Position numbers and translations under genes: made by a program. Shown here one piece after another: positions 3-24,270 of a DNA stretch of 64,000 nt. The stretch's first letter is position 1. Every line of letters starts with the position of its first letter. This DNA is from Candidatus Acidiferrales bacterium. Its GTDB lineage: Bacteria; Acidobacteriota; Terriglobia; Acidiferrales; UBA7541. The DNA lies in NCBI GenBank assembly GCA_963759275.1, contig CAVWYZ010000014.1, forward strand, positions 865,201 through 929,200, given 5' to 3'. The notes beneath the pieces are model-generated. The model did not search any database. It was given only the letters and a program-made list of their open reading frames with translations, and was not told where the DNA came from.

Positions 3-3000
3 AGCACGGCTGGGCCGACCACAGGATTGGCAACTGGAATTGGCGGCGGAGGACCGATCACGGTCTCCGCAACTTTCGGTTCCATCGTCAGCAGCACAAC
101 GGGCGGCGACGGAAATTTGACGGTTGTAGGAATCACGTCGTTGGTGCTCACGCCAGCCGCACCCACGGCTTATCTGGGGGACGCGAATCCTTTGAATCCT
201 GTGGGTACGCAAAACAATACCGTGGCATTCACGGCTACGGTCAACTATAGCGACGGCACTTCGACAAACGTGACGACGGCTGCCAACTGGAGCTCCGGCA
301 CTCCGGCGGTAGCAACGATCAGCAACACGGTGGGAACGCAGGGCCAAGCGACAATATTAATAGCGGGGACGAGCACGATCACTGCGACGTATGCGGGGGC
401 TTCGGGAAGCACCCTGTTGACAGTGTCGCCAGCGTTGCTAGAGTCGATCGCGCTGACCCCGACGAGCGTGTCGTTAAGCCTGATGGGCACGCAGCAATTC
501 ACAGCGACGGGCACGTTCAGTGACGGCACAAGTCAGGACGTTACCGCGCAAGTATCCTGGCTATCGGCGGACCCGTCGGTTGGAATCGCCCCGGGCGGGC
601 TGGCAACGGCACTCGGCTACAACGCGGGTGCGGCGATAACCGCGAGCGAGATTAACGCGGCAGGGACCACGATTATTTCTCCGTCAGCGACGGTGCTGGT
701 GCCAGCACCTACGCTGGTGATGATCACAGTCACACCTCCTTCGATATCCTTAGCTGCGGGATTCACGCAGCAGTTTGCCGCGACAGGAACGTATTCCGAC
801 GCGAGCGTGAAGGATGTGACTGCTCTAGTTACTTGGGGATCGAGCGATACGACGCTCGCAAGCATAACCAGCGGCGGCCTGGCTTCCGCGCTGAAGGTGG
901 GGATGGTTACGATATCGGCGACCTCCGGCAGTGTGGTAGGTTCCACGACGTTCACGGTGACAGCGCCGATCCTGCAGTCTGTTGCTGTTTGTCTTGGACC
1001 CTATCCCTCCTCGACCTGTGGCAGCAGTACGGTTTCGGTCGGCGTTACGTTGGGTCTGAATGCCACACAGCAATTTTCCGCGCTGGGGATTTACAGCGAC
1101 AGCAGTACGCAGGACCTTACCGCGACTGCAACATGGCAAGCGCACGATCCGATCGAAGTGAACATCAACAGCGCCGGGTTGGCGACGGTGATCGGAACGG
1201 ATAACGGTGCGCACGCGATTACCGCGAGTTACGGGACGATTGGGCCGTATCTCAACTCGAACACGGGATGGGTAACGGCGTCTTCGACACTGCCGATCTC
1301 GTGCCCGTCGCCGACCATCGATATGAGGATATTGGTGGTGAACAACACGGCGCAGGGTTATGCGGATTATCCGGCGATCCAACAGATTTTGAATTATGTG
1401 GGGACGCCATACGACGTGGTCGATGTTTCGAGTGCGGCCCCCACATTGTCCGATGGTGGCTGCCACGGTTATTACCAGGGTGTGATCTTTGCCTACGGCG
1501 GTGACTACTACAACATAGGCTCGTGGCAGGCGGCGTTGATTTCGTATGAGCAGACTTTTGGAGTGCGGCAGCTGAACTGGTATTCCGCGCCGGATCCCAA
1601 CTTTGGATTGGGTTACACCGGAACGCAACTAAACACGACCCCTCCACCGACCGGAACCGGAGCGTACACGGCGCCGTTCACGCTGGCAGCCGCGCCCGTT
1701 TTCTTTTATGCAAATACGACCACGCCGCTATCGATCACATATGCGGCGGTCGATTTGGCGACAGCCGCGCCCGCGGCGGGAGGTGCGTTAACCCCGCTAT
1801 TGCAAGATACCCAAGGCAATATTGTCTCTGCGATTTACACCCTCAACGGACAACAGTTCCTCACGCAGACGTTCGATAGCAACGCGTCTCTGACACACGA
1901 TCTGATCGTGGCGTACGGTTTGCTGAATTGGGTGACCAAGGGCGTGTTCTTGGGTGACTACCACGTGTACGCCACACAGTCGATCGACGACTTTTTCATC
2001 GACGATTCAGAATGGATACCGGGCACCGCGTGTCTTGCAAACCCATTGACGTTGGACCGCACAGCTCCGGACGCATCGAATCTGCCGGTGTTCCGGGTGA
2101 ACTCCGCCGACATGGCGCAGTTGGCGAAATGGCAGACAAACAAACAAGCAGATCCTCTCCTGGCGCAGTTTGAATTGACGATAGCGATGAACGGAGTAGG
2201 GACCACAGGGAACGGCGACTGGAGCGGTCTGATAGCGCCGATCATCTCTTCGTCCGCAGGCAGCGGAGCGGCGACCTTCACGGCACAAGACTTCGCGGCA
2301 TTAGCGGGCCAGACGGTTACCGTAACAAATACAACAAACGGTGGCGGGGTGCTCAACGGGACTTGGACGATCACTGCGGTGACCTCCAGCTCGGCGACCA
2401 CTCCCGGCACAACTACGTTTGTGGTAAGCATGCCGGGTGCACCAACTCTTATTACAACGGCGGAGAGAGGAGTAGCCGACAACCCGGGGAGCGCGACCGC
2501 GAGCATTGCTGACGATCTGACCGCGAATCTGCAAAGTTATCAACAGTCCTTTCATTGGATGAGTCACACCTATGATCATCCATCCACTTTGAACGGCCTG
2601 TGCCAGAGCACGCCCACCGGTACGGGTTGCGGTGATACGGATAATCCGGCGGTCGACGACATCGACCTGGAGATTCTGACGAACCGCTATGTGGCCTCGG
2701 ACCCGAGCGCCACGGCGGCGTGGATGCTAGACAGCGATCCAAGTGACGCGGTGAAGCAGCTCACGTTCAACGATTTCAACGCAGCCAACATCGTGACGCC
2801 GGGGGTAACCGGACTGAATGACCCGAATGTGCCCGCGTACCTATATAACGATGGGATTCGCTATGCGGTGAGCGATACATCGGTGGCAACGACGATCACT
2901 CCTCCGAACAACAACGGACCGAATCCTTCGCCGAATGTGGGGATCGTCAACAGCTACGCGCCCGGAATTTACGAGATTCCGCGGAAACCCAATGACATCT

Positions 3001-3659
3001 TCTATAACGTGGCGAATTGGGCCGACGATCAGGCCGAATTTGACTGCATTTATTCGTATTATGTACCGCCAGGATCACCGGTGGGCACCGTACCGGTGCC
3101 AGATCCACCGTTCAATACTTACAATGCCGCGCAAGTGCTGGACTTCACGAGCTCGGCGTTCCTGACCAACATGCTGATGGGCGACATGGATCCGGAAATG
3201 TTCCACCAGCCGGATCTGCACTTCTCGGACAATTATGTGGCGTTGAACAACGCGGCGCCGAGCGGCACCATTCCGGCGAGCGTGTCCAATTTTGTGGGCA
3301 CCAGCGGGACGCACGTGTCGTCGCTGCTATCGGACACCTACGATCTGACGTTCAGCAAGTACGAAGCGGTGTACAAGCTGCCAGTGCTGACGCCAACGCA
3401 GGATCAGTTGGGCGTGCTGATGCAGAATCGCAACTCGTTCAACTTATCAAATGTAACCGCGAGCATAGTCGGGGCCAACACCTCAAGCGCGACAATTACA
3501 ATTACGATGCCGACATCGGCAACAGTTCCGACGGCGATCATCCCAATTACTGGACTTGCTCTGCCACCCTTGACCCCTGGCTCAGAAATATATGGTGGGC
3601 AGAACATCGCGCACATCACCCTGACGCCGGGGCAGACCATCACGTTTTCCCTGAAATGA
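3..3659 (+). CDS. Large secreted protein, 5'-partial: several Big_2 Ig-like domains followed by an Agd3/CE18-like polysaccharide deacetylase module
   Basis: The frame is open to the window edge. Ig repeats of type SIALTPTSVSL..TQQFTATGTFSDGTSQDVT..V.W.S. C-terminal half has Agd3-like motifs: YEQTFGVRQL..Y..P, TQSIDDFFI (DD), MSHTYDH (HxxxH), EIPRKPNDIFYN, MFHQ. Confidence 0.8.
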   Translation, partial: STAGPTTGLATGIGGGGPITVSATFGSIVSSTTGGDGNLTVVGITSLVLTPAAPTAYLGDANPLNPVGTQNNTVAFTATVNYSDGTSTNVTTAANWSSGTPAVATISNTVGTQGQATILIAGTSTITATYAGASGSTLLTVSPALLESIALTPTSVSLSLMGTQQFTATGTFSDGTSQDVTAQVSWLSADPSVGIAPGGLATALGYNAGAAITASEINAAGTTIISPSATVLVPAPTLVMITVTPPSISLAAGFTQQFAATGTYSDASVKDVTALVTWGSSDTTLASITSGGLASALKVGMVTISATSGSVVGSTTFTVTAPILQSVAVCLGPYPSSTCGSSTVSVGVTLGLNATQQFSALGIYSDSSTQDLTATATWQAHDPIEVNINSAGLATVIGTDNGAHAITASYGTIGPYLNSNTGWVTASSTLPISCPSPTIDMRILVVNNTAQGYADYPAIQQILNYVGTPYDVVDVSSAAPTLSDGGCHGYYQGVIFAYGGDYYNIGSWQAALISYEQTFGVRQLNWYSAPDPNFGLGYTGTQLNTTPPPTGTGAYTAPFTLAAAPVFFYANTTTPLSITYAAVDLATAAPAAGGALTPLLQDTQGNIVSAIYTLNGQQFLTQTFDSNASLTHDLIVAYGLLNWVTKGVFLGDYHVYATQSIDDFFIDDSEWIPGTACLANPLTLDRTAPDASNLPVFRVNSADMAQLAKWQTNKQADPLLAQFELTIAMNGVGTTGNGDWSGLIAPIISSSAGSGAATFTAQDFAALAGQTVTVTNTTNGGGVLNGTWTITAVTSSSATTPGTTTFVVSMPGAPTLITTAERGVADNPGSATASIADDLTANLQSYQQSFHWMSHTYDHPSTLNGLCQSTPTGTGCGDTDNPAVDDIDLEILTNRYVASDPSATAAWMLDSDPSDAVKQLTFNDFNAANIVTPGVTGLNDPNVPAYLYNDGIRYAVSDTSVATTITPPNNNGPNPSPNVGIVNSYAPGIYEIPRKPNDIFYNVANWADDQAEFDCIYSYYVPPGSPVGTVPVPDPPFNTYNAAQVLDFTSSAFLTNMLMGDMDPEMFHQPDLHFSDNYVALNNAAPSGTIPASVSNFVGTSGTHVSSLLSDTYDLTFSKYEAVYKLPVLTPTQDQLGVLMQNRNSFNLSNVTASIVGANTSSATITITMPTSATVPTAIIPITGLALPPLTPGSEIYGGQNIAHITLTPGQTITFSLK

Positions 3660-3746
3660 CAGATTTTGGGGCCGGGTTTGAGTTTTTGACAAATACCCGG
3701 GGTGCAGTCGTTCGACCTAAGTAAAGGACAGAGACGGAGGAACAGT

Positions 3747-4910
3747 GTGAGCCAGATTTTCGAAGCACTGACCATCGCGCATGATCGAGCTGTTGAGAAG
3801 CTCGTGGACCGGCAAGTCGATGCCGATGAAACGATCACCGTTGCACCGGAGCGTTTCGTTTTCACCCATCAGAAGATCAGAAATGGTTTGATCGTCGCCT
3901 TTTTTGTCGTGGGGTTGACCCTGCTGGCAACCAACTATGCTTTTAAAGGGAACGCTCTGGTTGCCAAAAGCCAGCCGATTTATGGAGTGGCGTTTGAAAG
4001 CACGGTGCATCCGGCAAGCGAATTCGGGATCACCGCGGACCTGAGCGGCACGGTGTCGAGCATTTCGGTAAAGGTGGGGGACAAGGTGCAACAGGGTCAG
4101 TCACTCTTGCACATGGATGGACGCGAAGCGGAACTAGCGCTAAAACAGGCCGGGGGAGAGCTGCGTGCGGCCGAAGCAAACCTGGAGGAATTTAATGCAC
4201 ATGCGGATGCGGACGCGCGTGTGGCGGAATCGCAAAGACGAGAACAACGCATTCCTTCACGGCAATTTCGAGATTCGCCGGAACGGGCAAAGGCCGCGTA
4301 TGACCTCGCACTGAGCAACTACAACCGTGCCAAGGCGTTAAACGATGCGGGAGTGATGTCAAAACAGGAGCTAGACGGGAAAGAGACGGAACTGCGCATC
4401 GCGCAAGATGATTTAGAGAATGCCAAGAAGCTCGCGGCGGCTTCCTCTACGCTAGAACAGGAGCAGGCGACCCAAGTTGATTCGCAGGCCGCCGTTGCCC
4501 GCGAACGATTGGAGCAGCAATTGAATCAGGCGCGGTTGACGTACGAGCGCGCCAAGGAACAAGCGGAAGCAAGAATGGTGCGGACCACGCAAGCAGGGGT
4601 AGTGTCTGAAATTCCGGTGCATCTTGGCGATCGCGTGACGGCGGGAACGATCTTAGTGCGCCTTGCAGAACTCGATCACATGATCGCAGAGGTCCCAGTT
4701 GCCGCACGGATGATTGCGGAACTAAAGGTCGGCCAGCCGGCACAAGTGATACTGCCGTCGTCGCCGCCGCAGCAGGTGGAGGGGAAGGTCAGACTTATTA
4801 ATCCACTGCCATCGGCGAACATGACGCATATCGTCGAAGTCGAATTCGACAATCCAACTCTCCTGCTGCTGGCGGGACAGAGCGCAGAGGTCCGGTTCTC
4901 CAAGCGATGA
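3747..4910 (+). CDS. HlyD-family membrane-fusion/periplasmic adaptor protein with an ExeB-like N-terminal helix
   Basis: GGAGG precedes GTG at 3747. One TM helix, biotinyl-lipoyl-like halves (SGTVSSISVKVGDKVQQGQSLL; AGVVSEIPVHLGDRVTAGTIL), long coiled coil and beta-barrel end. N-terminus reads MSQIFEALTIAHDR. Confidence 0.8.
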   Translation: MSQIFEALTIAHDRAVEKLVDRQVDADETITVAPERFVFTHQKIRNGLIVAFFVVGLTLLATNYAFKGNALVAKSQPIYGVAFESTVHPASEFGITADLSGTVSSISVKVGDKVQQGQSLLHMDGREAELALKQAGGELRAAEANLEEFNAHADADARVAESQRREQRIPSRQFRDSPERAKAAYDLALSNYNRAKALNDAGVMSKQELDGKETELRIAQDDLENAKKLAAASSTLEQEQATQVDSQAAVARERLEQQLNQARLTYERAKEQAEARMVRTTQAGVVSEIPVHLGDRVTAGTILVRLAELDHMIAEVPVAARMIAELKVGQPAQVILPSSPPQQVEGKVRLINPLPSANMTHIVEVEFDNPTLLLLAGQSAEVRFSKR

Positions 4911-6415
4911 CTGCAAAAAGACGGATATCTGTACTGTTAACGACAGAAGGCACCTATCCCTTCTACACCGGAGGTGTGAGCAAGTGGTGCGATCGACTGA
5001 CCCAGGGTTTGCCGGACGTGGATTTTGACGTGCTCGCCGTCGTCACGAACCCGTATCCGGAGGCCAAGTACGAACTCGCGGATAACGTGCGGACGGTGAC
5101 TAAAGTTCCGCAATGGGGCCTACTGCAGCCTGCAGAATTCTCGCGCCACCAACCGACATCACTGGTTCTGCGCAACATGTGGGACACAACAAGACAAGTG
5201 ATCGAGGATCGCTTCCGGCCGATCTTTGAGCGATTCCTTTCCCTGGTGTTTTCGTCGTCCTGCGACAAAGAGGAACTGGGCGAAGCGCTACTTGATCTGC
5301 AACGTTATTTTCAACACTACGATTATGCGCGCACGATGAACTCGCTGGACGCGTGGGACGTGCTTCAGCATGCGGTGCATGCCTCATGGGAATGCCGCCC
5401 GGCGGCCGCAGAGGATCCGACTTTGGCCGAGGTGAAAGAAGCGTACCGGTTGCTGTATCACCTTCTGATGGTCCTGCACTTTCCGATCCCGGAGGCGGAT
5501 ATTACACATTCTTCGTCCGCCGGCTTCTGTGGGCTGCCTTGCATCTTGGCGAAGCTGGTACACGGTACGCCTTACCTGCTGACCGAGCACGGGGTTTATT
5601 TGCGGGAACAGTATCTGAATCTGCGTCGTCAACTGAAATCGGTCTTCGTACGATGGTTCCTGTGCCGGTTGGTTGAAAACGTGGTCGAGCTGAACTATTT
5701 CTTTGCCGACCAAATTTCCCCGGTATGCGCTTTCAATTCCCGCTGGGAAGAACATTTAGGCGTACCGCGAGACAGAATCAAGGTGGTGTTTAACGGCGTC
5801 GATCCCGAGCGATTCCAGCCTAGCGAACGGGAGCACAATGACAGGCCGTTAGTTTCCACCGTAGGGCTTATTTACCCACTGAAAGGCCAACTCGATTTGA
5901 TTCACGCGGCGGCCATCGTCAAGGAGAGCTACCGGGACCTGGAAATACGCTTTTATGGCGCGTCCAACGACCCCGTCTATTACGGGGAGTGCGAGCGCAG
6001 GGTCGCCGAACTGCACCTGGAAAACAATGTCACTTTCGCGGGAACCACAAAGGAGCCCTGGAAGGCCTACAGCAACGCGGATGTTGTGGCGATTCCGAGT
6101 ATCTCCGAGGGGTTTCCATTCGCGGCGTTGGAGGCCATGTTGTGCGGGTCAGCAATTGTGGCGACGGACGTGGGCGGCGTAGCAGAGGCCATCGGCGATT
6201 GCGGACTGCTGGTCCCCGCGAAGACGCCGCAAGCGATGGCCGAGGCGATCACCTTTTTGCTGAGTGACCCAGCGACGCGCGAACGACTGGGCCGGAATGC
6301 GCGTGCGAGAGCTTTGGCACACTTTACAGAGCAACAATTTCTAGATTCCTACGAAAACACCTACCAGCAGTTGCGAGACTACCGTCCGCAGGGACTTACC
6401 AGGCGTCGCGCGTAA
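4907..6415 (+). CDS. pelF: PelF-type GT4 glycosyltransferase (DUF3492 + Glycos_transf_1)
   Basis: N-terminal VLLTTEGTYPFYTGGVSKWC, LLTEHGVYLRE, and the GT4 signature SISEGFPFAALEAM. ATGA overlap with the upstream gene. Confidence 0.85.
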   Translation: MTAKRRISVLLTTEGTYPFYTGGVSKWCDRLTQGLPDVDFDVLAVVTNPYPEAKYELADNVRTVTKVPQWGLLQPAEFSRHQPTSLVLRNMWDTTRQVIEDRFRPIFERFLSLVFSSSCDKEELGEALLDLQRYFQHYDYARTMNSLDAWDVLQHAVHASWECRPAAAEDPTLAEVKEAYRLLYHLLMVLHFPIPEADITHSSSAGFCGLPCILAKLVHGTPYLLTEHGVYLREQYLNLRRQLKSVFVRWFLCRLVENVVELNYFFADQISPVCAFNSRWEEHLGVPRDRIKVVFNGVDPERFQPSEREHNDRPLVSTVGLIYPLKGQLDLIHAAAIVKESYRDLEIRFYGASNDPVYYGECERRVAELHLENNVTFAGTTKEPWKAYSNADVVAIPSISEGFPFAALEAMLCGSAIVATDVGGVAEAIGDCGLLVPAKTPQAMAEAITFLLSDPATRERLGRNARARALAHFTEQQFLDSYENTYQQLRDYRPQGLTRRRA

Positions 6416-6429
6416 ATCGGAGAACGAAT

Positions 6430-7566
6430 GTGCGGTCTGTTTGGATCGTGTTGGCTATGATGACCATCGCAGCGACTAACCTGTCGTTCGGGCAAAACGC
6501 GCAGGCAGGGAACGCGGTATCGGTCCGGCTGGCGATTTACTATGGCTATCCAAGCCTGGTCAACGAGGCCCGTGGAGATGTGGCGAAGGCCGCGAGCGTG
6601 TTCAGTGCTTATGATGTGGTGGTGCTGGGAGACGGGTTGGAGTTTGCAGACGTGAAGCAGGGCCGTTATCCGGAAGGCGATCCCGGAGAACATCTGAAAT
6701 CGATGCAGATTATTGCTGCCGTACAGAAGCGCAGCCCTACTACCCGCTTTTACGGATATATATGCCTCGGAGAAATTCCGTGGCCGAAAGGTCAACAAAC
6801 AGTACTCTCTCTTCAACTGCTTCAAGAGCGGATAGAGCTTTGGAAACAGATGGGCGTGTCCGGGATTTTTCTAGATGAGGCAGGTTACGACTATGCGGCG
6901 GTGACCCGGGAGCGACAGAACTTCGCGGTGCGGACGATCCACGAATTGGGACTGAGCGCGTTCATGAATGCTTATTTTATCGACCACTTGTTTAGTCCTG
7001 ACGACAATTTACCCCACTCAGCGGGAACGGGGAAGAATCCAAAACATCTCGCCGCCCTATTAGATAGGCGCGATCTTTTCCTGCTTGAGTCGTTCCAAGT
7101 GAAGAGCGGCGCATACGAAAGCATCGATGCGGCGCAGTCGCGGATAGACCGCGCGCTCGGTTATAGGCGTCAATTCGGGTCTAAGGTTTTCGCGACAACG
7201 ACGACTACAGTCCAAGAACCATTTAACGGCGAAAAATTCAACTATGCCTGGTGGACCGCACGATTGTACGGCCTGGACGGATTCAGTTGGGGAGAGCCTG
7301 AGTTTTCGGCGCTGAACAACTTACTCCCCGATCGTCGGTGCGCCACGACCACAGTGCCGCCGTTCGAGCCTCGGTCCGCCGTTCAGTCCGACGGCGAACA
7401 TCTCTGGAGGAAAGCAGGGCCTTACCTGGTAGTCGTCGACACGGAGAAGCACACGGTTCGCCGGATCCTGCAGGTTGATCGCGTCGTCGAAGCAAAATCG
7501 ATTCCCGCGCTGCTGAGTCCGTCGCCAAAGAACTCTCCATTGACATGTGAGGGAGCCGCGGAATGA
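6430..7566 (+). CDS. Secreted TIM-barrel glycoside hydrolase, PelA-hydrolase/Ega3/Sph3-like (alpha-1,4-galactosaminidase candidate)
   Basis: Signal peptide. Motifs IYYGYP, YDVVVLG, FYGYICLG, GVSGIFLDEAGYD and FLLESF give two candidate catalytic acids. Context is next to pelF. Confidence 0.6.
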   Translation: MRSVWIVLAMMTIAATNLSFGQNAQAGNAVSVRLAIYYGYPSLVNEARGDVAKAASVFSAYDVVVLGDGLEFADVKQGRYPEGDPGEHLKSMQIIAAVQKRSPTTRFYGYICLGEIPWPKGQQTVLSLQLLQERIELWKQMGVSGIFLDEAGYDYAAVTRERQNFAVRTIHELGLSAFMNAYFIDHLFSPDDNLPHSAGTGKNPKHLAALLDRRDLFLLESFQVKSGAYESIDAAQSRIDRALGYRRQFGSKVFATTTTTVQEPFNGEKFNYAWWTARLYGLDGFSWGEPEFSALNNLLPDRRCATTTVPPFEPRSAVQSDGEHLWRKAGPYLVVVDTEKHTVRRILQVDRVVEAKSIPALLSPSPKNSPLTCEGAAE

Positions 7567-9104
7567 GCCTGAATCCAAGCGAGATCGAAGAACAACTGCG
7601 CAACGACGGGAATAGTAAAGCGCGATTTCTTAGTCACGGCGAGGTCGCGGCCTTGCTCGAATCGCTCGGTTACAACGATCGTTTGTCCAAGCATCTCGGC
7701 TACTCGAACATCTTCACGTTCGCAGAACATCTCTTTTTAAATCTTCAACGGGATCCGGCGGTAGCAAACCGGCCGGCACAAATATCCGGCGAGCGGTCAC
7801 TCTTAACGGAGTTGCAGTACGCGTTGCGCAAGTTCTCGCTCAGCCTTGCCTATGTCATTCCCTGGATGGCTCTGCTGGTCATGGAGTATCTGCGGCCGAA
7901 TGCGCTCAACGTCCCTCCGGAATTGGGCGGCGCCTTAAGCCTTGCGTTGATCGGGAGCCTGATCGCGACGGGTGGATTCATTCAGGTAATCTCCCGTGGC
8001 GGCAACTTCTATTTTGGTCTGAAAGAGCCTTCCCTGGCGCGACACACGTGCATGAAATTTTTGAACCTGGGATTGACTACCAGCCTACTGCTGGGGTTGC
8101 TGGGTATGATTGTGGGAGCGTACTTCCACCTTTTCGCTGGGCACTATCTCTTGCTGGCGGCGATAAACTTTGTGGCCCTTAGTGCGCTTTGGATGTACTG
8201 CGCCGTCTTATCGGTGCAAGGCCTTGGTTGGTGTGTGCTGCTGGTGTTCTTACTGAGCGCAATGATATGCGGATGCGCGAAGGTTCTGGCCGGCGCGGGA
8301 AATACTCTGCTGTTAACCCTCTGGCCGGTAACGGCTGCCTTGTGCGCCTTTGCCGCAATGCACATGGGTTTCCGCCGTGCTGAAGCTAAAATGTCTGGCG
8401 CTCGTAATAGTGCGAGACCCCGGTTCGGGGTGCAGTCCATCTCCTTGCTGTCGTTTTTCCTGTACGGCACTTTTTATTTCAGCTTTTTATTCGCAGACCG
8501 ACTCGCGGCCGGCAGCGCTGTGCCTTGGGTTTCCGGCCTGAGTTTTGGGATCGACCCGGCTTATAAGAAAGGGATGGACCTGGTTCTGCTGGCCTTCCTG
8601 ATCACCGCGGCAGTGGTGGAGTATCTCAGCGACTCATTCTTGCGATTCTGGCGGGGATTAGCAGCAGAGTTGGAGCAGTCTCGCAATGAAGAATTGGTCC
8701 TAAAACTACGGAAGCGGCACTGGAAAATGATCGGAATCATCCTGTTGATGTTTGTGGTTGTTGCCACGGGTGCGTGGTTCGCATTTTCCCGCGCGAGCGG
8801 AGCGCTACTTTCACCCCGGTTGTTGGAAACGGCGGCGATTGGGGGACTTGGTTATCTAATGTTGAGTATTGCGCTGCTGGAAATCGTTATCTTGTCGAGC
8901 ATCAATTCCACTTCTTTGGCAATGGTCGCCACTGCATTAGGACTTGCCGTGAATCTGGTCACAGGCTACGGGCTGAGTCACTTTGGAGGAGTGCAGTATG
9001 CCGCTGGTGGATTACTTGCCGGGGCGGCAGTGCTGTTATGGACCTGTAACGCGGCGGTAAGGCAAGTACTGCGCCGACCGGATTATCACTATTCCATTTC
9101 CTGA
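7563..9104 (+). CDS. PelG-like multi-pass exporter/flippase
   Basis: About 12 hydrophobic segments after a soluble N-terminal region, FYFSFLFADR motif, position in a pelF operon, ATGA overlap. Confidence 0.55.
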   Translation: MSLNPSEIEEQLRNDGNSKARFLSHGEVAALLESLGYNDRLSKHLGYSNIFTFAEHLFLNLQRDPAVANRPAQISGERSLLTELQYALRKFSLSLAYVIPWMALLVMEYLRPNALNVPPELGGALSLALIGSLIATGGFIQVISRGGNFYFGLKEPSLARHTCMKFLNLGLTTSLLLGLLGMIVGAYFHLFAGHYLLLAAINFVALSALWMYCAVLSVQGLGWCVLLVFLLSAMICGCAKVLAGAGNTLLLTLWPVTAALCAFAAMHMGFRRAEAKMSGARNSARPRFGVQSISLLSFFLYGTFYFSFLFADRLAAGSAVPWVSGLSFGIDPAYKKGMDLVLLAFLITAAVVEYLSDSFLRFWRGLAAELEQSRNEELVLKLRKRHWKMIGIILLMFVVVATGAWFAFSRASGALLSPRLLETAAIGGLGYLMLSIALLEIVILSSINSTSLAMVATALGLAVNLVTGYGLSHFGGVQYAAGGLLAGAAVLLWTCNAAVRQVLRRPDYHYSIS

Positions 9105-9113
9105 GCTCTCCCA

Positions 9114-10874
9114 GTGCCGCCAATCGATCTAGTGCGAGCCGTTTGGATCTTATTCATTTTTACCACGGTGTTTTTCTTCGCGCCGATCTATCTCACCCCA
9201 ACTCGAGAGAGCCCCATGCAACTCCTCCGAGTAGTCGGCAACTTTGTCCGCGCACTACTCGCGGTGGCGATCGTGAGTGTAGTGCTGTCGCGTCTGAAGA
9301 TTTTCAACGCCACCACAATGCTTTTGCTTTTGCTACTTACACTGGTGATCGCCTGGGTGCGCAAGCGCGCGGCAACTTCCCGCGATTGGCTTACAGGCTT
9401 GCAAGAAGCGGTAATCGGAATCGTACGCTTCAGCGAAGGTCAATCGCGCAGTCGTCTCAGGAATGCACCTGCTCCGACCGAACAACGCGAAACGACGTCA
9501 CTTTTGACGGCTCTGCGAGGGAAAGAAATGCTGGCCGTAGCCCTCGTTGTGGTGGTGATCACGACGGGCGTCCTGTTCTTTGCACATTCTTTCCGTGAAC
9601 TGCGTCTCGACCAACCCGAGCAATATGAAGAGTTACTTCGGGGGCGAGAACTGATGCTTAACCTGCCTGTCCACGATCGTCCAGTAGTGTTCCCGTCTGT
9701 GGTGGCGACGATTGCGTTCCTTAGCAGTGCGGATCCAATGGACGTTACGCGCTTCCTAACGCCGGTGTTTGAATTATTCCTGGTTTTTGCGGCTGGCCTC
9801 TTGATTTTCGTATGCACCCGTGGCGCTGTGACCGCCATCGCGGCTGTCTATTGTTTAGGAACAGCCGCTTTCCAGTTCAGCGGAGGTGACGGAGCCGTAC
9901 CGATTTCCGCCGCGGAAAAGATCGAAAGCCTCCTCCGGAGCTCGTTGACAAGAACGCGAGGAAGTCCCGAGTTCGAAATTGGGCTGTTGTGCGTGGTGTT
10001 GACCCTGGCATTTCTGACGACCTGGCTCGAAGACGGCCGGGACTGGGATTCGCTGGTGGACGCAGCGTGCTGCGTGGTGATAGTCGCGGTGGCGTCTCCG
10101 TTTTTGCTTCTCGTTTGTATGATAGCGGCGGGATCGGTGCTGCTTCGACCGGTGGCGGGAATTGCAGCGTTTGTCCTCGTTTCGTACGGCTTGGCCACCT
10201 ACGGCGTGCTGTCTGGCGATCTGAGCGTTCCGCACGGGGGGTATCTGATTCTTGCGCTCGCCGCGGTATTGGGCGTGGGCTGCCTTCTGGGAATAATCGA
10301 ATCGAGATTGCTGGTGCCCATGGGAAAGACCGCCGAGCGAACACTTTTATTTGCTTACGTAGCCGTCGCCGTTCTGGTATTCCGTCCGCACCCGGTTGCT
10401 GCCCAATACCTTGAATACGAAAAAGCGGCTCGTGAAACGCAAGTGATTGCCGATCGATTCCCGCGTCAAACATGGGCCGTTGTGGCTCCCATAGAGCAAT
10501 TGGCGGAAACCCTGGGGTTGGGAGGATACGAGGATTTAGCGAACTTTGTTGAGAAGTATAAGGATCAAGCCGCGAATCCTGAGTTTCGTATTCCTGACGT
10601 GCCGGAGGATTTGTTCATCTATGTCGAAAAGACGCCGTTCCAGTTTTTCTCGCGCGAACCCCAAGTCGTCCCGATGAGTGTACTGGCCGACAGCACCTAC
10701 CGCAGTTACCGTTCACCCGCAGGGCGGGCCAGCCTGGAGTCGGCTGCACTACGGCTCTGTGAAAGCTATCAGCAATCGCACGGCAGCTCGACGGACATAT
10801 TTTATGAGGACCAAGCTCTGCGCATCTATCATTTGCGCCGGGAACCCAATTCGAAAACGGGAACAGGAGGCTGA
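9114..10874 (+). CDS. Unknown multi-pass membrane protein with a C-terminal extracytoplasmic domain (possible GT-C-like or polysaccharide-modifying enzyme)
   Basis: Many TM segments, then a soluble C-terminal domain (EYEKAARET..WAVVAPIEQL..LFIYVEKTPF..YED..LRIY). Tightly linked to the operon. Confidence 0.55.
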   Translation: MPPIDLVRAVWILFIFTTVFFFAPIYLTPTRESPMQLLRVVGNFVRALLAVAIVSVVLSRLKIFNATTMLLLLLLTLVIAWVRKRAATSRDWLTGLQEAVIGIVRFSEGQSRSRLRNAPAPTEQRETTSLLTALRGKEMLAVALVVVVITTGVLFFAHSFRELRLDQPEQYEELLRGRELMLNLPVHDRPVVFPSVVATIAFLSSADPMDVTRFLTPVFELFLVFAAGLLIFVCTRGAVTAIAAVYCLGTAAFQFSGGDGAVPISAAEKIESLLRSSLTRTRGSPEFEIGLLCVVLTLAFLTTWLEDGRDWDSLVDAACCVVIVAVASPFLLLVCMIAAGSVLLRPVAGIAAFVLVSYGLATYGVLSGDLSVPHGGYLILALAAVLGVGCLLGIIESRLLVPMGKTAERTLLFAYVAVAVLVFRPHPVAAQYLEYEKAARETQVIADRFPRQTWAVVAPIEQLAETLGLGGYEDLANFVEKYKDQAANPEFRIPDVPEDLFIYVEKTPFQFFSREPQVVPMSVLADSTYRSYRSPAGRASLESAALRLCESYQQSHGSSTDIFYEDQALRIYHLRREPNSKTGTGG

Positions 10875-10965
10875 GCGGTCGATTCGCAGTTACCGGGTGC
10901 ATGCCGCGCATTGCTGTTGAGATAAATCCACAGATCGAAGGAAGACATTTCAAACACTAAAGACA

Positions 10966-11886
10966 ATGTACACCGACTTTTACAAGCTGACGCGCAATCC
11001 ATTTGAAATAACGCCCGATCCTTACTTTCTGTATTCCACGAAAAGGCATAAAGAGGCGCTGGCCGCGCTTTATTACGGAGTTCGCCAGCGCAAAGGGTTT
11101 GTGGTGCTGACCGGTGAAGTGGGCACGGGAAAGACGCTGCTGATCCGTTGTCTCTTGCAGCTATGCAAAGGCACGGACATCGCTACCGCGTACGTCTTCA
11201 ATAGCCGGTTGTCGACTCTAGAATTTCTGCAATACGCAGCAACTGATTTGGGCCTCGCCGCCAGTAACAAACCAAAAGGCGACATCCTGGTCGATTTGAA
11301 CCGGTTTCTCCTCAGTCGTTACCATAAAAAATTAACGACTATGATGGTCGTGGACGAGGCGCACCATCTCTCGACCGAAATTTTGGAAGAGATCCGCCTT
11401 CTTACGAATTTGGAGACAGCGGATGAAAAGCTGATCCAAATTGTTCTGGTGGGACAATCGGAACTGAGCGACAAGCTGGACTCCTACGAGTTGCGGCAGC
11501 TGAAACAGCGCATTGCACTGCGCGCTTATCTGGAGCCGCTGGATCTAGAGAACACCAAAGGGTACGTGCGCTGCAGACTTCAGCTCGCCGGAGCCAATTC
11601 CGTTGCGGCCGCTTTGCTTCCAGATGAAACGGTCGCGAGAATCCACCACTTCTCGCGGGGCATCCCGCGTTTGATCAACACCATCTGCGACAATGCGTTA
11701 CTTACAGCATTTGCAAGGCAATTAACGAGTGTGCCCGCCAGCGTCATCGACGAAGTCGCTGAAGAACTGCGATTGCATGTCGGACGGCTGCGCAGTTTGT
11801 CGCTGTTCGAGATGGCTAAGGATCCGGATCAAACGCTGTCCGCTGGACAGAGGCTGCTGGAACTGCGGCAACACCAAAGTCTGTAG
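10966..11886 (+). CDS. ExeA/GspA-like AAA ATPase lacking the C-terminal peptidoglycan-binding part
   Basis: MY..FYKL..NPFEITPDP.FLY, Walker A GEVGTGKT, Walker B MVVDEAHHL, IVLVGQSEL, GIPRLINTICDNALL. Confidence 0.9.
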   Translation: MYTDFYKLTRNPFEITPDPYFLYSTKRHKEALAALYYGVRQRKGFVVLTGEVGTGKTLLIRCLLQLCKGTDIATAYVFNSRLSTLEFLQYAATDLGLAASNKPKGDILVDLNRFLLSRYHKKLTTMMVVDEAHHLSTEILEEIRLLTNLETADEKLIQIVLVGQSELSDKLDSYELRQLKQRIALRAYLEPLDLENTKGYVRCRLQLAGANSVAAALLPDETVARIHHFSRGIPRLINTICDNALLTAFARQLTSVPASVIDEVAEELRLHVGRLRSLSLFEMAKDPDQTLSAGQRLLELRQHQSL

Positions 11887-12086
11887 GAACAACCCTGCCA
11901 TCCTAAGGGAGTTCGTAAAGTGCTTCCGACTTTGGCTCGCGACGACCAAGGACCTGCCTGTACTTCAGAACAGTTTGAGTGACACATGCCGTGTGCTACG
12001 GTGGTGCCACCTAAGCTCTCTAACCCCACGGCGTTCTCCATTCCCGGAATCTATTCTCTGTTGGCTTTCGCTCGAAGGAATTCGCT

Positions 12087-15000
12087 ATGACGTTTTGTGG
12101 CAAACGAGTGGGTAGTTGCTGCCCAACTTTATGGGCGATGCTAACGTTTTTTGTTGTCCTGACAATGACACTGCAAGGTTGCGCGACGACGAGTAAAACC
12201 AACGTTCAGACGATTCCTCCCCTCAGCGTTTCCGTTTCTTCGCTGCCGAATGGACAGGTTGGAACGGCGTACACCGCCATGCTCACCGCAACCGGCGGAG
12301 CTACCCCGTATTCGTGGACGCTGGCCAGTGGGACACTGCCGGCAGGGCTTGCGTTGAATGCTGCTACCGGCGCCATTACGGGGACACCCACGCAGGCAGT
12401 GTCGAATGCTGCGCTTAGCTTTAAGGTGACGGATTCCAGTGTTCCGCCACAGACACAAACAGCCAGCCTCACGCTAACCGTAGACGCCGCGGTGATTCCA
12501 GTGAGTATCACCACAACATCGCTACCAACTGCGACGGTGAACGTGGCATATTCGCAGCAACTGGCGGCGACGGGTGGCAGTGGAAGCTGCACGTGGACAC
12601 TGACTACGCCGGTAGCCGGCTTCTCACTGAGTGCTTCCGGGCTGTTGACTGGCACACCGACGAGCACGACGACTCTCTCGTTGCAAGTAAAAGCGACCGA
12701 CAGCAAGAGCAGCAGTAATTCCGCAACAGCGACGCTCTCGCTGCAGGTCAGCGCAGCAGTTACGCCTGTGAGTATCAGCACGACTACTCTACCAGTTGCC
12801 ACGGAGAGCACCGCCTATTCACAGCAACTCGCGGCCACCGGTGGCAGTGGCAGCTATACGTGGACGCTGACCGCGCCGGTGACTGGCTTTTCGCTGAGTG
12901 CCTCCGGACTGCTGACCGGCACACCGGCGAGCACGGCAACACTTTCGTTCCAAGTGAAGGTAACCGACAGCACGAACAGCAGTAACTTCGCGACGGCGAC
13001 GCTTTCGCTGACGGTCAATGCCACGGTGACCCCGGTGAAGATCACGACAACCACGTTGCCCGCGGCGACCGTGAACGTGGCGTACTCACAGCAACTGGCT
13101 GCGAGTGGTGGCAGTGGCAGCTACACGTGGACCTTGACCACTCCGGTGAGCGGCTTTTCGCTGAGCAGTTCTGGGTTACTGACCGGCACACCAACAAGCA
13201 CGACAACGCTTTCGTTCCAGGTGAAAGCGACGGACGCCACTAGCAGCAGCAACTTCGGGACCACTACGCTCTCGCTAACGGTCAATGCCACCGTGACTCC
13301 TGTAAGCGTTACTACAACGACGTTGCCTGCGGCCACGGTGAACACTGCCTACTCACAGCAACTGGCCGCGAGTGGTGGCAGTGGCAGCTACACGTGGACG
13401 TTGACCACTCCGGTGACGGGCTTCTCGCTGAGTAGTTCTGGGCTGTTGACCGGCACGCCGACAAGCACGACGACGCTTTCTTTCCAGGTGAAGGCCACAG
13501 ACACCAAAACCACGAGCAATTCCGGGACCGCGACCCTGTCGTTGACCGTTCATGCGGCCGCGACTCCTGTAAGCGTGACTACGACCACGTTGCCCGCGGC
13601 GACGGTGAACGTGGCGTACTCACAGCAACTGGCTGCGAGTGGTGGCAGTGGAACGTATAACTGGACGCTGACGACTCCGGTGACGGGCTTCGCATTGAGC
13701 AGCGCTGGGCTGCTGACCGGTACGCCCACAAGTACGACGACGCTTTCTTTTCAGGTGAAAGCGACGGACACCACCAGCGGCAGCAACTTCGGGACGGCGA
13801 CGTTATCCCTGAAGGTGAACGCGGCGGTGGTCCCTGTAAGCGTGACCACAACGACGTTGCCCGCGGCGACGGTGAACGTGGCGTACTCACAGCAACTGGC
13901 CGCGAGTGGTGGAAGTGGAACGTATAACTGGACGCTGACCACTCCGGTGACGGGCTTTTCGTTGAGCAGTTCAGGGCTGCTGACCGGCACACCAACAAGC
14001 ACGACGACGCTTTCGTTCCAGGTGAAAGCGACGGACTCCACCAATAGCAGCGACTCTGGAACCGCCACACTGACGTTATCGGTCAACGCTGCTATTAGCG
14101 GGTCAGCCTTCTACGTTTCTCCTTCCGGAAGCGATTCGAATACCGGCACGCAGTTATCACCGTGGAAGACCATTCAGCACGCGGCCAATTCCGTGCACGC
14201 GGGAGACACCATTTACGTGCGCGCGGGGACCTACAACGAGTCCGTGACCATTGCGGTTTCGGGATCAGCAGCGGCCGGTCCGGTAATTTTCCAGAGCTAC
14301 CCCGGAGAGACGGCGATTGTGGACGGCACCGGGTTGACGCCATCCACTTCTGACGTGCAAGGGCTGTTTAACATCGAGGATGAGAGTTACGTCACGATTC
14401 AGGGATTCGAGATCCGTAACTACCAGACCTCGAGTTCCTCAGCCACGCCGGCGGGTATTTGGATCACCGGAGCAGGGAGCAACATCCAGATCCTGAACAA
14501 CGTGATTCACAACATCGTCACCACGTCGGAGGCCAGCGGCAACGCTTTTGGTATTGCGGTCTATGGGTCGGAAGCGCCCGCTGCGCTGGACAGTGTGACC
14601 ATCAGCGGCAACCAGGTGTACAGCTTGAAGACCGGCAACAGCGAGACGGTGAACGTGGATGGGAACGTGACGAACTTCGTGATCAACAACAACATCATCC
14701 ACGACAACGACAACATCGGCATCGATGTGATCGGATTCGAGGGAGTATCGCCGAATTCCGCGTACGACTATGCGCGGAACGGGGAAGTGAGCGGGAACAC
14801 GGTATACAACATATCGGCGATCAACAATCCGGGAGAAGGGAATGAGTACGATGCCGACGGGATCTACGTAGACGGGGGATCGCAAGTGGTGATCGAGCGC
14901 AACCTGGTGCACAACTGCGATCTGAACATCGAGGTGGCCAGCGAGCACAAAGGGCACGTCAGCAGCTACGTGACGGTGCGAAACAACCTGGTGTATGCGG

Positions 15001-15641: not shown

Positions 15642-16367
15642 ATGACTGCAATATCGGTACAACTGCCCTCCCATTGGACCGATGAATTGCTAGCCGCCGC
15701 CCGGACGGGCGACAAAGACGCCTTCAGTGCTTTGGTGGCCGGGCTGTCTCCGCGTCTTCACCGACTAGCGCGCCGCTTGACGCGAAACATAGAAGACGCC
15801 GAAGACGTGTGTCAGGAATCGATCTTAAAAGCGTTTACCAAGCTGGACCAATTTGCGGAGACACAAGAAGCGGCAAGTGATGATTTCCGCAATTGGCTTA
15901 CGACCATCACGGTGAACTCCGCGATCGATTGTAACCGGCGGAAACGGGCTTTCCAGATTGTCGACCTGGACGAACGCTCTTGCCCACACCGCGCGTCCTA
16001 CCAGACATCATGTGGATGGTATAGCGAGAATCCAGAAGGGTTCTACGCGCGGAAAGAACAAGCTCGGATCGTTGTGGATGCCATAACGAAACTGCCGAGG
16101 CGACTGCGAAATGTGTGCCTTCTCCGGAATGTGATGGATTTTTCCACTAAGGAAGTCGCCGCTCAATTGGGGATTTCGACGAATGCCGTGAGATTACGTT
16201 TATTTCGTGCGCACGGACAATTAAGAAAGAGTCTTGGGGTGATGGCGGTGGAACGCCGGCGGAAATATCGTCGCACGACACAATCCGGCGCCGCGAATCC
16301 GAGGTGGCAGCGCAATCGTAAGATCACGAGTAGAAATGATGCGCCTCCAGTAATTCTGCCTAATTGA
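15642..16367 (+). CDS. ECF (sigma-24 type) RNA polymerase sigma factor
   Basis: Region 2 (DAEDVCQESILKAF..L..F; WLTTITVNSAID) and region 4 (LP..LR.V.LLR....STKEVAAQLGISTNAVRLRLFRA). Confidence 0.88.
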   Translation: MTAISVQLPSHWTDELLAAARTGDKDAFSALVAGLSPRLHRLARRLTRNIEDAEDVCQESILKAFTKLDQFAETQEAASDDFRNWLTTITVNSAIDCNRRKRAFQIVDLDERSCPHRASYQTSCGWYSENPEGFYARKEQARIVVDAITKLPRRLRNVCLLRNVMDFSTKEVAAQLGISTNAVRLRLFRAHGQLRKSLGVMAVERRRKYRRTTQSGAANPRWQRNRKITSRNDAPPVILPN

Positions 16368-16608
16368 TTTCAGGCAGCTCGGCTCTCATCAATTCAGTAA
16401 GCGAGTCTTTCCTTCCTGTGCGGCCGCGCGTGCAGCTACGCGCGCGAGTACTGGTATAACCAGAAGTACTCCGCTCCTGTACCCCCCTCGAAAATCGCAT
16501 TGTACTTTAATCGTACCTTTGTACAGGTATCTTCCCGCACTTCCTCACTGCTAGAGTGAAATTCCCGGTTCTCGACCCCCATACACAGTCACCCGAACCG
16601 AATCTGAA

Positions 16609-22629: not shown

Positions 22630-22686
22630 TCTGAGCATTGGGCCCCGGGAGCCTTGCTGAAGACTCGTGAAGAGCCGGAGGATCAG

Positions 22687-24268: not shown

Positions 24269-24270
24269 TC

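Follow-up and report, generated by a model that had tools for sequence, protein, structure and literature searches.

A probable Pel/GAG-type exopolysaccharide operon with a conserved membrane-fusion adaptor in an uncultured soil acidobacterium

Judging by profile, alignment and predicted-structure evidence, a gene cluster in an uncultured soil acidobacterium (order 'Acidoferrales') is, at a probability of roughly two in three, a Pel/GAG-type operon for synthase-dependent exopolysaccharide production. Its most likely product, made and secreted by the cell, is a cationic, galactosamine-rich biofilm polymer comparable to Pel of bacteria or GAG of fungi. The cluster encodes a PelF together with a membrane protein of the PelG superfamily, a complete Agd3/CE18 module and a TIM barrel resembling galactosaminidases, in keeping with the Pel/GAG-type interpretation of an earlier note on this DNA; that note's identification of g4, its weight on the ATPase and its estimate of novelty need correction.

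The plus strand of the window (the whole 64-kb stretch of DNA analysed) carries seven long ORFs, co-oriented and tightly packed (Table 1). Four-nucleotide ATGA overlaps join g2 to g3 and g4 to g5, and the gaps measure 14 nt between g3 and g4, 9 nt between g5 and g6, and 91 nt ahead of g7. Since every ORF has numerous full-length homologs, g1–g7 are real genes rather than chance ORFs, and the mostly coupled arrangement first described is confirmed. Neither g4, g5 nor g6 has a Pfam, NCBIfam or PDB sequence match, even at E<=10; the labels "PelA-like" and "PelG-like" given to g4 and g5 are thus not directly readable, and required deeper tests.

Table 1. Features of the locus and its downstream flank, in window positions.
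Feature	Position	Strand	Attributes
g1	3(27)-3659	+	ORF clipped at the window's 5' edge
g1 Ig-repeat stalk	3-1262	+	Big_2 domains; in-window part of the secreted protein, 5' end upstream
g1 C-terminal Agd3-like module	1263-3659	+	CBM87-like, CE18 deacetylase, C-terminal beta domain
g1 catalytic DD	1986-1991	+	by alignment to Agd3
g1 metal-binding His	2565 and 2577	+	by alignment to Agd3
g1 catalytic-acid His	3204	+	by alignment to Agd3
g2 periplasmic membrane-fusion (HlyD/RND-adaptor) protein	3702/3747-4910	+	TIGR01730; HlyD_D23, HlyD_3, Biotin_lipoyl_2; 3747 is the start chosen by gene callers
g3 PelF-type cytoplasmic GT4 glycosyltransferase	4907-6415	+	NF038011; DUF3492 + GT1; EX7E at residues 401-409
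g4 secreted (beta/alpha)8-barrel protein	6430-7566	+	small C-terminal beta domain; AF2 model; distant GH135/GH114 relation
g4 candidate catalytic pair	D149 (6874), E220 (7087)	+	both invariant in family
g5 divergent PelG-superfamily polytopic membrane protein	7563-9104	+	about 11-12 TM segments; soluble N-terminal extra domain of ~90 aa
g6 polytopic membrane protein, core gene	9114-10874	+	about 10-11 TM segments; highly conserved C-terminal alpha/beta domain of ~160 aa
g7 soluble GspA/ExeA-like AAA_22 ATPase	10966-11886	+	Walker A GEVGTGKT, Walker B MMVVDE
g8 secreted protein	12087-15530	+	He_PIG Ig repeats, right-handed beta-helix (DUF1565, pectate-lyase-like), choice-of-anchor-Q domain
ECF sigma factor	15642-16367	+	TIGR02937 94.1 bits; between two beta-helix paralogs
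g8 paralog	16609-19023		

The earlier call of a PelF GT4 is borne out by g3, which passes NCBI's PelF model over its full length (NF038011, 157.8 bits; cut-off 100), scores 161.6 bits against DUF3492 and shares 25-38% identity with annotated PelF proteins of Deinococcus, Streptomyces and Paraburkholderia. The link between its membrane partner g5 and PelG is indirect, because the window's own g5 lacks a Pfam match. Within a g5 family of 573 representatives, Pfam PelG is matched by 19 of 52 diverse members (best 2.8e-15), and hhalign against two canonical PelG proteins gives 75% over 394 collinear columns. Unlike PelG of Pseudomonas aeruginosa, g5 has an extra N-terminal domain, common to the PelF-adjacent protein of Deinococcus ficus (96%, hhalign). 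On these comparisons g5 is a divergent PelG relative, linked through intermediate sequences only: "PelG-like" holds at the superfamily level and cannot be read from g5's own sequence.

The deacetylase is carried by a giant protein. Identical metagenome contigs give g1 a full length of 2895 aa; the complete gene in locus L005 (1226-9913) encodes the N-terminal signal peptide MKVNRRFRVAVGFSILILLLGMAAP, 13 Big_2 stretches and ASH/DUF1573-type Ig domains, and PDB sequence matches to the stalk are Ig repeats only. As had been proposed, the C-terminus is Agd3-like, scoring 40.4 bits with Pfam Agd3_CE (cut-off 27.6) and 18.3 bits with CBM87_Agd3. A profile of 15 homologs matches the Agd3 structure 6NWZ at E=8.2e-43 across profile positions 19-618 of 629, and Agd3 residues D377/D378, H510, H514 and H668 align with the invariant D242, D243, H435, H439 and H648. 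By alignment, then, this region is a complete Agd3 homolog in which no catalytic residue is missing.

The suggested HlyD adaptor is equally recognizable: g2 scores 117.3 bits against the HlyD/RND membrane-fusion protein (MFP) model TIGR01730 (cut-off 94.9), with a single N-terminal TM helix at residues 44-62, a coiled-coil stretch of ~150 aa, a highly conserved periplasmic part and a cytoplasmic tail that is not conserved. In related loci the MFP gene always lies directly upstream of PelF, even where gene order is otherwise shuffled. These features identify g2, at the level of sequence, as a true membrane-fusion adaptor.

A gene-neighborhood comparison across Acidobacteriota reveals strongly conserved synteny. 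The comparison set comprises 60 related loci, all from MAGs, in Acidobacteriota and two cyanobacterial MAGs. A six-gene core (Agd3 module, adaptor, PelF, g4, g5 and g6) is kept in 30 of them, spanning Acidobacteriota classes plus the two cyanobacterial MAGs. The invariant non-Pel parts are the adaptor and g6; every one of the 30 complete loci has g6, and 5 loci carry it with g4 as its sole companion. The description of g6 as an unknown polytopic protein still fits: its 102 homologs are, without exception, unnamed. Its AF2 model (pLDDT 70.4) has only GT-C enzymes as best Foldseek matches, all weak (E 1.6e-3 to 3e-2, TM-score 0.22-0.36), which faintly suggests a GT-C-like fold.

An alternative would be a standard Pel system scattered over the genome, in which PelB/C (outer-membrane export) and PelD/E (c-di-GMP platform) lie at other sites and the adaptor, g6 and ATPase are additions to them, not substitutes. 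Genome coverage here is the 64-kb window plus 1.2 kb upstream, diderm cells require an outer-membrane route that the locus does not provide, and g4-family genes can occur in canonical pel operons; in locus L052, for example, a pelCDEFG-epimerase-glmS operon ends with one. Yet PelA-E were detected neither in the window nor next to a core locus, and PelB, C, D and E were likewise not detected in the 1.2 kb upstream or in the neighborhoods of the 30 complete loci (flanks of at most 10 kb, as contig ends permit), even though the same search readily picked up the set's one canonical proteobacterial pel locus. Moreover, g2, g6 and g7 show no similarity to PelC/D/E profiles (at most 0.3%), and the adaptor and g6 are conserved to PelF's level. 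We consider a split Pel system improbable. The earlier note had recognized no PelB, C, D or E, and held that their presence just upstream, or a lack of conserved synteny, would count against it; the search returned conserved synteny and no PelB/C/D/E, and neither result refutes it. The locus yielded neither an outer-membrane channel nor an ABC/RND partner nor a c-di-GMP receptor; export and regulation thus remain conjectural, and that adaptor and ATPase replace PelBCDE in these roles we can only infer.

The hydrolase assignment required revision. The AF2 model of g4 is a TIM barrel (pLDDT 85.7), and its own sequence matches no GH family. Of 20 diverse family members, 15 are matched by Pfam Spherulin4 (best 3.3e-8), although members scanned singly reach 15-25 bits, under the 30.2 cut-off; in hhalign the family scores 83% with true Spherulin-4 and 90.6% with GH114, and the spacing of the candidate Asp/Glu pair resembles known galactosaminidase families. 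The model's top 50 PDB matches consist of GH168 fucanases and generic TIM barrels (TM-score about 0.5) and include neither Sph3 nor Ega3 nor PelA. We reject the assignment of g4 as a PelA/GH166-like hydrolase; by sequence and model it is a new TIM-barrel family, distantly and weakly linked to GH135 (Sph3, Spherulin-4) and GH114.

What, then, is the polymer? Related loci add GH114 (nine loci, 290.8 bits), a GalE-like 4-epimerase, GlmS and true Spherulin-4 (95.2 bits). These additions speak for a GalNAc/GalN polymer, with the caveats that the window itself holds no epimerase, GH114 or GlmS and that the sugar specificity of the PelF family is not readable from sequence. This accessory set is also that of fungal GAG clusters and of the Paraburkholderia pel locus. 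A different hexosamine polymer, for instance one based on GlcNAc, with PelF-like and Agd3-like enzymes acting on another sugar or linkage, would suit a window that holds no 4-epimerase or GH114, a g4 outside every characterized GH family, and bacterial Agd3 homologs that so far lack biochemical characterization. We judge it unlikely, as sister loci with the same core have GH114, a GalE-like epimerase and GH135, each of them associated with alpha-1,4-GalN(Ac) polymers, and the CE18 catalytic motifs and CBM87-like region are conserved.

Of the other genes, g7 and g8 appear to be accessories. The proposed GspA/ExeA-like AAA identity of g7 stands (AAA_22, 89.2 bits; TIGR03015, 283.5 bits across the whole profile, under the 324.5 cut-off; no TM segment predicted), but g7 does not belong to the conserved core: found in only 16 of the 30 complete loci, the ATPase is an accessory gene. 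Genes like g8 adjoin 10 of the 30, and L026 has one between PelF and g4; g8 may act on or bind the polymer. The ECF sigma factor does not recur in related loci; it may act locally as a regulator. Upstream of g1 lie an UpxY-type antiterminator (NusG paralog) and a divergent gene.

Acidobacteria are known polysaccharide degraders, three products of the cluster are secreted glycan-modifying enzymes, and beta-helix lyase-like proteins adjoin, so one might imagine a catabolic or attack locus, degrading fungal GAG or foreign Pel and importing the products through its membrane proteins. This is very unlikely: a cytoplasmic PelF is translationally coupled within the cluster beside a PelG-type protein, sugar-uptake and catabolic genes were not found, and hydrolases and deacetylases are standard in biosynthetic Pel and GAG clusters. 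Scarcely credible is that HlyD-type g2 serves type I secretion of giant g1, in the manner of RTX-like adhesins, instead of polysaccharide export: giant Big-repeat adhesins are classic T1SS cargo and the type I HlyD model gives g2 a weak match (52.9 bits), but that score is far under the 208.65 cut-off, g1 bears a Sec signal peptide, ABC transporter and TolC genes are absent from the locus, and the MFP-PelF pair persists where the Agd3 protein is stalkless, at about 650-700 aa.

For a Pel/GAG-type operon, a plausible sequence of events can be outlined. From UDP-GalNAc, alone or together with UDP-GlcNAc, PelF would build an alpha-1,4 chain at the inner membrane, and g5 would move the chain into the periplasm. 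There g2 may form a sleeve passing it to an outer-membrane channel encoded elsewhere, as in Alg44 and tripartite-pump adaptors, while g4 would trim it and the stalk-borne Agd3 module of g1 would deacetylate it outside the cell, rendering it cationic and adhesive. A further obligatory membrane subunit would be g6, with g7 and g8 as putative lineage-specific accessories; the UpxY-type NusG paralog probably sustains transcription through the roughly 20-kb operon. Alg44 is the PilZ-TM-MFP co-polymerase of the alginate synthase, and the resemblance lies in a single-TM, MFP-fold periplasmic protein encoded beside the polymerizing enzyme in a synthase-dependent system; unlike Alg44, g2 has no PilZ or conserved cytoplasmic domain, and its partner is of the PelF/PelG type rather than a GT2 synthase.

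The locus shares with P. aeruginosa pelABCDEFG a PelF passing the equivalog model, a PelG-superfamily partner, and a predicted product (a partially deacetylated GalNAc polymer) handled by hydrolase and deacetylase. PelB, PelC, PelD and PelE are missing, however, and where P. aeruginosa PelA combines GH166 with a CE4-like domain, separate Agd3/CE18 and GH135/114-like proteins occur here. From the fungal GAG cluster (uge3, gtb3, agd3, ega3, sph3) come further parallels: homology to Agd3 spans the entire protein, g4 distantly resembles Sph3, and sister loci add Ega3-type GH114 and 4-epimerase. In contrast, the single fungal synthase Gtb3 is split into PelF and a PelG-like protein, the envelope is diderm with an MFP adaptor, and the window lacks both additions.

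Bacterial Agd3 operons with a cytoplasmic GT and a multi-pass membrane protein have been published from Actinobacteria, Deinococcus-Thermus and a few Proteobacteria, not from Acidobacteriota, and the Gram-negative examples bore Pel outer-membrane parts (Bamford et al. 2020, Nat Commun, PMC7229062). As in those operons, GH114 and Spherulin-4 genes are often nearby; unlike them, the loci here have an obligatory MFP adaptor, the new families g4 and g6, and a deacetylase fused, in g1, to an Ig stalk of about 2100 aa. Likewise, "pel-like" clusters in which only pelF and a relative of pelG remain from the pel operon are already described in the epsSMASH preprint (10.64898/2025.12.21.693542), from whose main text the word "Acidobacteriota" is absent; in the present locus, g2, g6 and g7 were negative when compared with PelC/D/E by profile. 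Given both reports, the locus is less new than the earlier note's "undescribed system" implied. In essence, the locus combines known Pel/GAG parts with several undescribed ones.

The seven co-oriented genes at the start of the window (g1 to g7) are real and operon-like, as the earlier note proposed, because full-length homologs of each ORF number from dozens to hundreds and the junctions between the genes are tight. A 4-nt ATGA overlap joins g2 to g3, and likewise g4 to g5; the spacing is 14 nt between g3 and g4, 9 nt between g5 and g6, and 91 nt ahead of g7. Directly upstream of g1 lies a 192-aa NusG paralog that passes the NCBI model for UpxY antiterminators (121.7 bits; cut-off 100), a type best known from Bacteroides capsule loci, and the gene beyond it is on the opposite strand. 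The operon therefore starts at the UpxY paralog, and pelBCDE do not lie just upstream, a placement that the earlier note had regarded as fatal to its proposal. In at least 8 related loci, the giant gene likewise has a similar NusG paralog ahead of it. Scans for promoters and terminators stayed at background level and carry no information on operon limits, and a search of RNA runs for the locus returned soil and peat DNA metagenomes only.

Table. Features of the window and of related loci (window positions unless a locus is named)
Feature	Position	Strand	Remark
UpxY-family NusG paralog	466-1044 of identical contig L005, upstream of window		heads operon
g1, Ig stalk and Agd3-like module	3-3659	+	window opens inside ORF
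g2, MFP adaptor	3702/3747-4910	+	long ORF
g3, PelF	4907-6415	+	long ORF
g4, predicted TIM barrel	6430-7566	+	long ORF
g5, PelG-like	7563-9104	+	long ORF
g6, polytopic protein	9114-10874	+	long ORF
g7, ATPase	10966-11886	+	long ORF
g8, He_PIG/beta-helix/choice-of-anchor-Q secreted protein	12087-15530		pectate-lyase-like beta-helix
ECF sigma factor	15642-16367		between g8 and g8 paralog
g8 paralog	16609-19023		secreted He_PIG/beta-helix/choice-of-anchor-Q
Four-gene cluster resembling soluble [NiFe] hydrogenase	22654-27213		Fer4_22 protein, NAD-binding/DHODB Fe-S protein, Oxidored_q6 small subunit, NiFeSe large subunit
PQQ-dependent dehydrogenase	35383-37521	-	C-terminal cytochrome c domain
Canonical proteobacterial pelC-D-E-F-G/epimerase/glmS operon	187-12637 of control locus L052		last protein 917 aa, N-terminal domain of g4 family
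Divergent g6/g4 pair	about 8000-11000 in each of L033, L035, L037, L041, L043
Second giant g1-like gene	about 16000-21100 in Acidoferrales loci L008-L012, L045		downstream of g7
Core genes in many short ORFs	3400-14300 of L061
Deinococcus ficus plasmid pDFI1 cluster	8995-19316 of L006

Two identical metagenome contigs (L001 and L005) supply the whole of g1, a protein of 2895 aa in which an N-terminal signal peptide is followed by 13 Big_2 stretches and other Ig-type domains. This stalk of about 2100 aa precedes a C-terminal Agd3-like module that other lineages encode as a free-standing protein of about 650-700 aa. A plain PDB sequence search with g1 returns only the Ig repeats, and Pfam yields Agd3_CE at 40.4 bits (cut-off 27.6) together with a sub-threshold CBM87 match. 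A profile of 15 homologous C-terminal modules from related loci aligns to Agd3 (PDB 6NWZ) at E=8.2e-43, over profile positions 19-618 of 629 and chain residues 23-669 of 684, and the g1 module has the three-domain architecture of CE18/Agd3: CBM87, CE domain, and C-terminal beta domain. The active site of Agd3 comprises the base D377, the metal triad D378/H510/H514, and the catalytic acid H668 (Bamford et al. 2020, PMC7229062). In the alignment, their counterparts in the window module are D242, D243, H435, H439, and H648, each of which is invariant across the module family. The whole-module alignment and the invariant active site thus argue that g1 ends in a complete, probably active CE18 deacetylase. 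Secretion of this giant protein by a T1SS was rejected on account of its signal peptide and the absence of an ABC or TolC gene from the locus.

The next two genes fall into recognized families. The MFP adaptor g2 scores 117.3 bits with the RND-adaptor model TIGR01730 (cut-off 94.9), also matches HlyD_D23 and Biotin_lipoyl_2, and combines the lipoyl/alpha-hairpin/beta-barrel organization of membrane-fusion proteins (HlyD/RND adaptors) with an N-terminal anchor, in the form of a single TM helix, and a long coiled-coil stretch. Conservation is high in the periplasmic part and lacking in the short cytoplasmic tail, so that a conserved cytoplasmic sensor, whether PilZ-like or not, was rejected for g2. 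Over its full length, g3 passes the PelF equivalog model NF038011 (157.8 bits; cut-off 100), with DUF3492 and GT1 domains, an EX7E motif, and 25-38% identity to annotated PelF proteins. The Agd3-like deacetylase, HlyD adaptor, and PelF GT4 named in the earlier note are accordingly all borne out.

The PelG-like exporter that had been proposed for g5 survives as a distant link made through diverse relatives, but the window protein itself has no Pfam PelG match. Sequence searches of Pfam, NCBIfam, and the PDB with g5 return nothing even at E<=10, and a Pfam PelG signal is present in 2 of 39 members when the window protein is taken with its close homologs. An exhaustive g5 profile search reached 573 cluster representatives, and Pfam PelG matches 19 of 52 diverse full-length ones (best E 2.8e-15). 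With a shallow g5 alignment and one PelG template, hhalign gives no signal (0.2%); the 75% obtained over 394 collinear columns (g5 residues 93-510, PelG 27-452) arises only with a deep g5 alignment and two canonical PelG templates. The protein has about 11-12 TM segments, preceded by a soluble N-terminal domain of about 90 aa that is not in canonical PelG and is common to the PelF-adjacent protein of Deinococcus ficus (96%). This indirect evidence points to g5 as a distant PelG-superfamily relative with an added N-terminal domain. On the D. ficus plasmid pDFI1, the gene after an annotated pelF encodes a PelG-like hypothetical protein with the g5-type N-terminal domain. Behind it come an SDR family oxidoreductase, perhaps an epimerase, as well as a nucleotidyltransferase, an Agd3-like protein, and two GH114 genes; together these make up a compact Bamford-type cluster on a plasmid.

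The earlier note's view of g4 as a PelA-like hydrolase probably does not hold: its weak links lead to GH135 and GH114. The protein matches nothing in Pfam, NCBIfam, or PDB sequences even at E<=10. An AlphaFold model from 30 homologs (pLDDT 85.7) shows a (beta/alpha)8 barrel to which a small beta domain is appended at the C-terminus. Foldseek places GH168 fucanases and generic TIM barrels first among its PDB matches, with TM-scores of about 0.5 that are insufficient for a family assignment. Sph3, Ega3, and PelA are absent from the top 50 matches, in which none of the families GH114, GH135, GH166, and GH191 is represented. Pfam Spherulin4 (GH135, the Sph3 family) matches 15 of 20 g4-family members (best E 3.3e-8); scanned singly, relatives reach 15-25 bits over profile positions of about 28-110 of 239, short of the cut-off of 30.2 for the GH135 (Spherulin-4/Sph3) model, and window g4 itself has no match to it. 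By hhalign, the family aligns through the first half of the barrel with true Spherulin-4 (83%) and GH114 (90.6%), and its invariant GIFLDEAG strand falls on the catalytic-Asp strand of Spherulin-4/GH114. Two residues invariant in the g4 family, D149 and E220, are 71 residues apart; the Asp/Glu pairs of GH114, GH166, and GH191 are separated by 58-69 residues according to a 2025 galactosaminidase paper, which gives four galactosaminidase families as a possible clan. A g4-family protein also ends the canonical pel operon of the proteobacterial control locus, L052. Spherulin4 matches, hhalign, D149/E220 spacing, and the L052 operon together make g4 a probable separate family within the Pel/GAG galactosaminidase supergroup, and probably no relative of PelA (GH166).

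In the window, phmmer with Paraburkholderia Pel queries found PelF alone; PelA (its C-terminal part, without the N-terminal GH166 domain), PelB, PelC, PelD, PelE, PelG, GH114, and GalE were among the queries. The C-terminal part of PelA gave a single chance-level match (E 0.0044) in a short ORF at 63 kb, and the CE18 module supplies deacetylation in PelA's place. Neither PelB nor PelC was found by phmmer in the window or any core locus, and the PelD/PelE c-di-GMP platform was likewise negative in both; among all loci, PelC, PelD, PelE, and canonical PelG were detected in L052 only. TPR, porin, and lipoprotein families do not occur among g1-g8 or the downstream genes. The lack of recognizable PelB/C/D/E claimed previously therefore extends across the window, the 1.2 kb upstream with the UpxY paralog and opposite-strand gene, and the core loci. 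That g2, g6, and g7 are hidden PelC/D/E homologs is ruled out, as their families show no profile similarity to these proteins (hhalign at most 0.3%).

The last two genes of the operon differ in how readily they are named. As in the earlier note, g6 is a polytopic protein without a family: it has no match in Pfam, NCBIfam, or PDB sequences even at E<=10. Its TM segments number about 10-11, and it closes with an alpha/beta domain of about 160 aa that is very conserved. GT-C enzymes (AftA, STT3, AglB, DPY19) are the only Foldseek matches of its model (pLDDT 70.4) with any probability, and these are weak (E 1.6e-3 to 3e-2, TM-score 0.22-0.36); the first loop is short and without a conserved DxD motif. 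The g7 product, a soluble ATPase of the AAA_22 family, has both Walker motifs intact and aligns over the whole TIGR03015 model at 283.5 bits, below the cut-off of 324.5. With this sub-cut-off score, and no exosortase among the scanned genes, it is not assigned as an XrtA/PEP-CTERM-associated ATPase, and "GspA/ExeA-like" is a fair, and the best, label. The ExeA ATPase of the earlier note thus keeps its name, but lies outside the conserved core.

That core emerges from 60 loci encoding g4 relatives, drawn from species-representative genomes and scanned with the window proteins. All six members (Agd3 module, MFP, PelF, g4, g5, g6) occur in 30 of the 60, several more being truncated by contig ends, so that the conserved synteny expected in the earlier note is present. 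Complete loci span Acidoferrales, Terriglobales, subdivision 2 and 6 MAGs, Vicinamibacterales, Pyrinomonadaceae, and two Cyanobacteriota-labelled MAGs. Gene order is shuffled in some loci, yet the MFP invariably keeps its place directly upstream of PelF. Of the 30 complete loci, 16 have g7 and 10 have g8-like genes; the UpxY paralog can be seen in 8. Clustering of neighboring genes and annotation of representatives identified GH114 (9 loci, best 290.8 bits), GalE-like epimerase (5-8 loci), GlmS (3-4 loci), true Spherulin-4 (3 loci, best 95.2 bits), LuxR-type response regulator (7-9 loci), and BBP2 porin (2 loci) accessories. Fungal GAG clusters and the Paraburkholderia pel locus have the same accessory set, which is the best evidence that the product would be a GalNAc/GalN polymer.

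Several variants of the locus were observed. Five loci hold the g6/g4 pair alone, without PelF, MFP, or Agd3 nearby, and g4 and g6 may therefore form a functional unit of their own. Three of these carry Blastocatellia or Acidobacteria labels and two Clostridia (perhaps mis-binned); the neighbors in the two inspected, L033 and L037, include Ser/Thr kinases, one of which in L033 matches PilZ weakly, and in L037 a PilZ protein. The MAG CAWAPN01 has two copies of the locus, L045 and L013, the former lacking PelF between MFP and g4. The second giant gene of some Acidoferrales loci has its own Agd3 module in L012 and L045 and its own NusG paralog in L011; in the window, g8 occupies its position. A g8-like gene sits inside the locus in L026, and beside 10 related loci in all. 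L061, in which all core genes seem to be split among short ORFs, is either a decayed locus or a frameshift-full assembly.

By homology, the locus encodes PelF with a distant PelG-like partner as synthase pair, a CE18 deacetylase, a barrel resembling galactosaminidases, and an MFP adaptor. In the mechanism we envisage, PelF would build an alpha-1,4 GalNAc-rich chain, g5 would pass it across the inner membrane, and g2 would serve as periplasmic conduit to an outer-membrane channel outside the known locus genes. The nearest precedents for such a conduit are Alg44 and pump adaptors. The chain would be trimmed by g4 and deacetylated by the stalk-borne Agd3 module at or beyond the cell surface.

Parts of this arrangement have been described before. 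In Actinobacteria, Deinococcus-Thermus, and a few Proteobacteria, Agd3 homologs share operons with genes for a cytoplasmic GT and a multi-pass membrane protein, with GH114, and in some cases with Spherulin-4 (Bamford et al. 2020, PMC7229062), and pelFG-only "pel-like" clusters are reported in the epsSMASH preprint (10.64898/2025.12.21.693542). Searching the literature turned up no paper that describes a pel locus from Acidobacteriota, an MFP coupled to PelF, or the g4 or g6 families. The Pel/GAG variant with a different export architecture put forward in the earlier note is thus partly supported: the Pel/GAG-type locus is conserved, but the ATPase is not core and the whole is less novel than held, leaving two undescribed core proteins and a putative export route. 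Tentatively, with a probability of roughly 0.3, we suggest that in Acidobacteria and certain other soil diderms a cationic polymer of the Pel/GAG type leaves the cell via an unprecedented synthase-dependent machine. In it, a PelF/PelG-like synthase would be coupled to a pump-style MFP and a new GT-C-like membrane subunit, g6, in place of PelB/C/D/E, and processing of the polymer at the cell surface would fall to g4, as a fifth galactosaminidase-like family, and to a deacetylase borne by a giant Ig stalk.

Acidobacteriota rank with the most abundant bacteria of soil, where their matrix polymers influence aggregation and the retention of carbon, yet almost nothing is known of how these polymers are made. 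Two protein families without assigned function, g4 and g6, now have a clear biochemical hypothesis, and g4 may be a new source of enzymes for cutting Pel or GAG biofilms. For the exopolysaccharide field, the question posed is whether an MFP adaptor is able to replace the PelB/PelC export pair. The locus would extend the Pel/GAG cationic adhesive polymers to Acidobacteriota.
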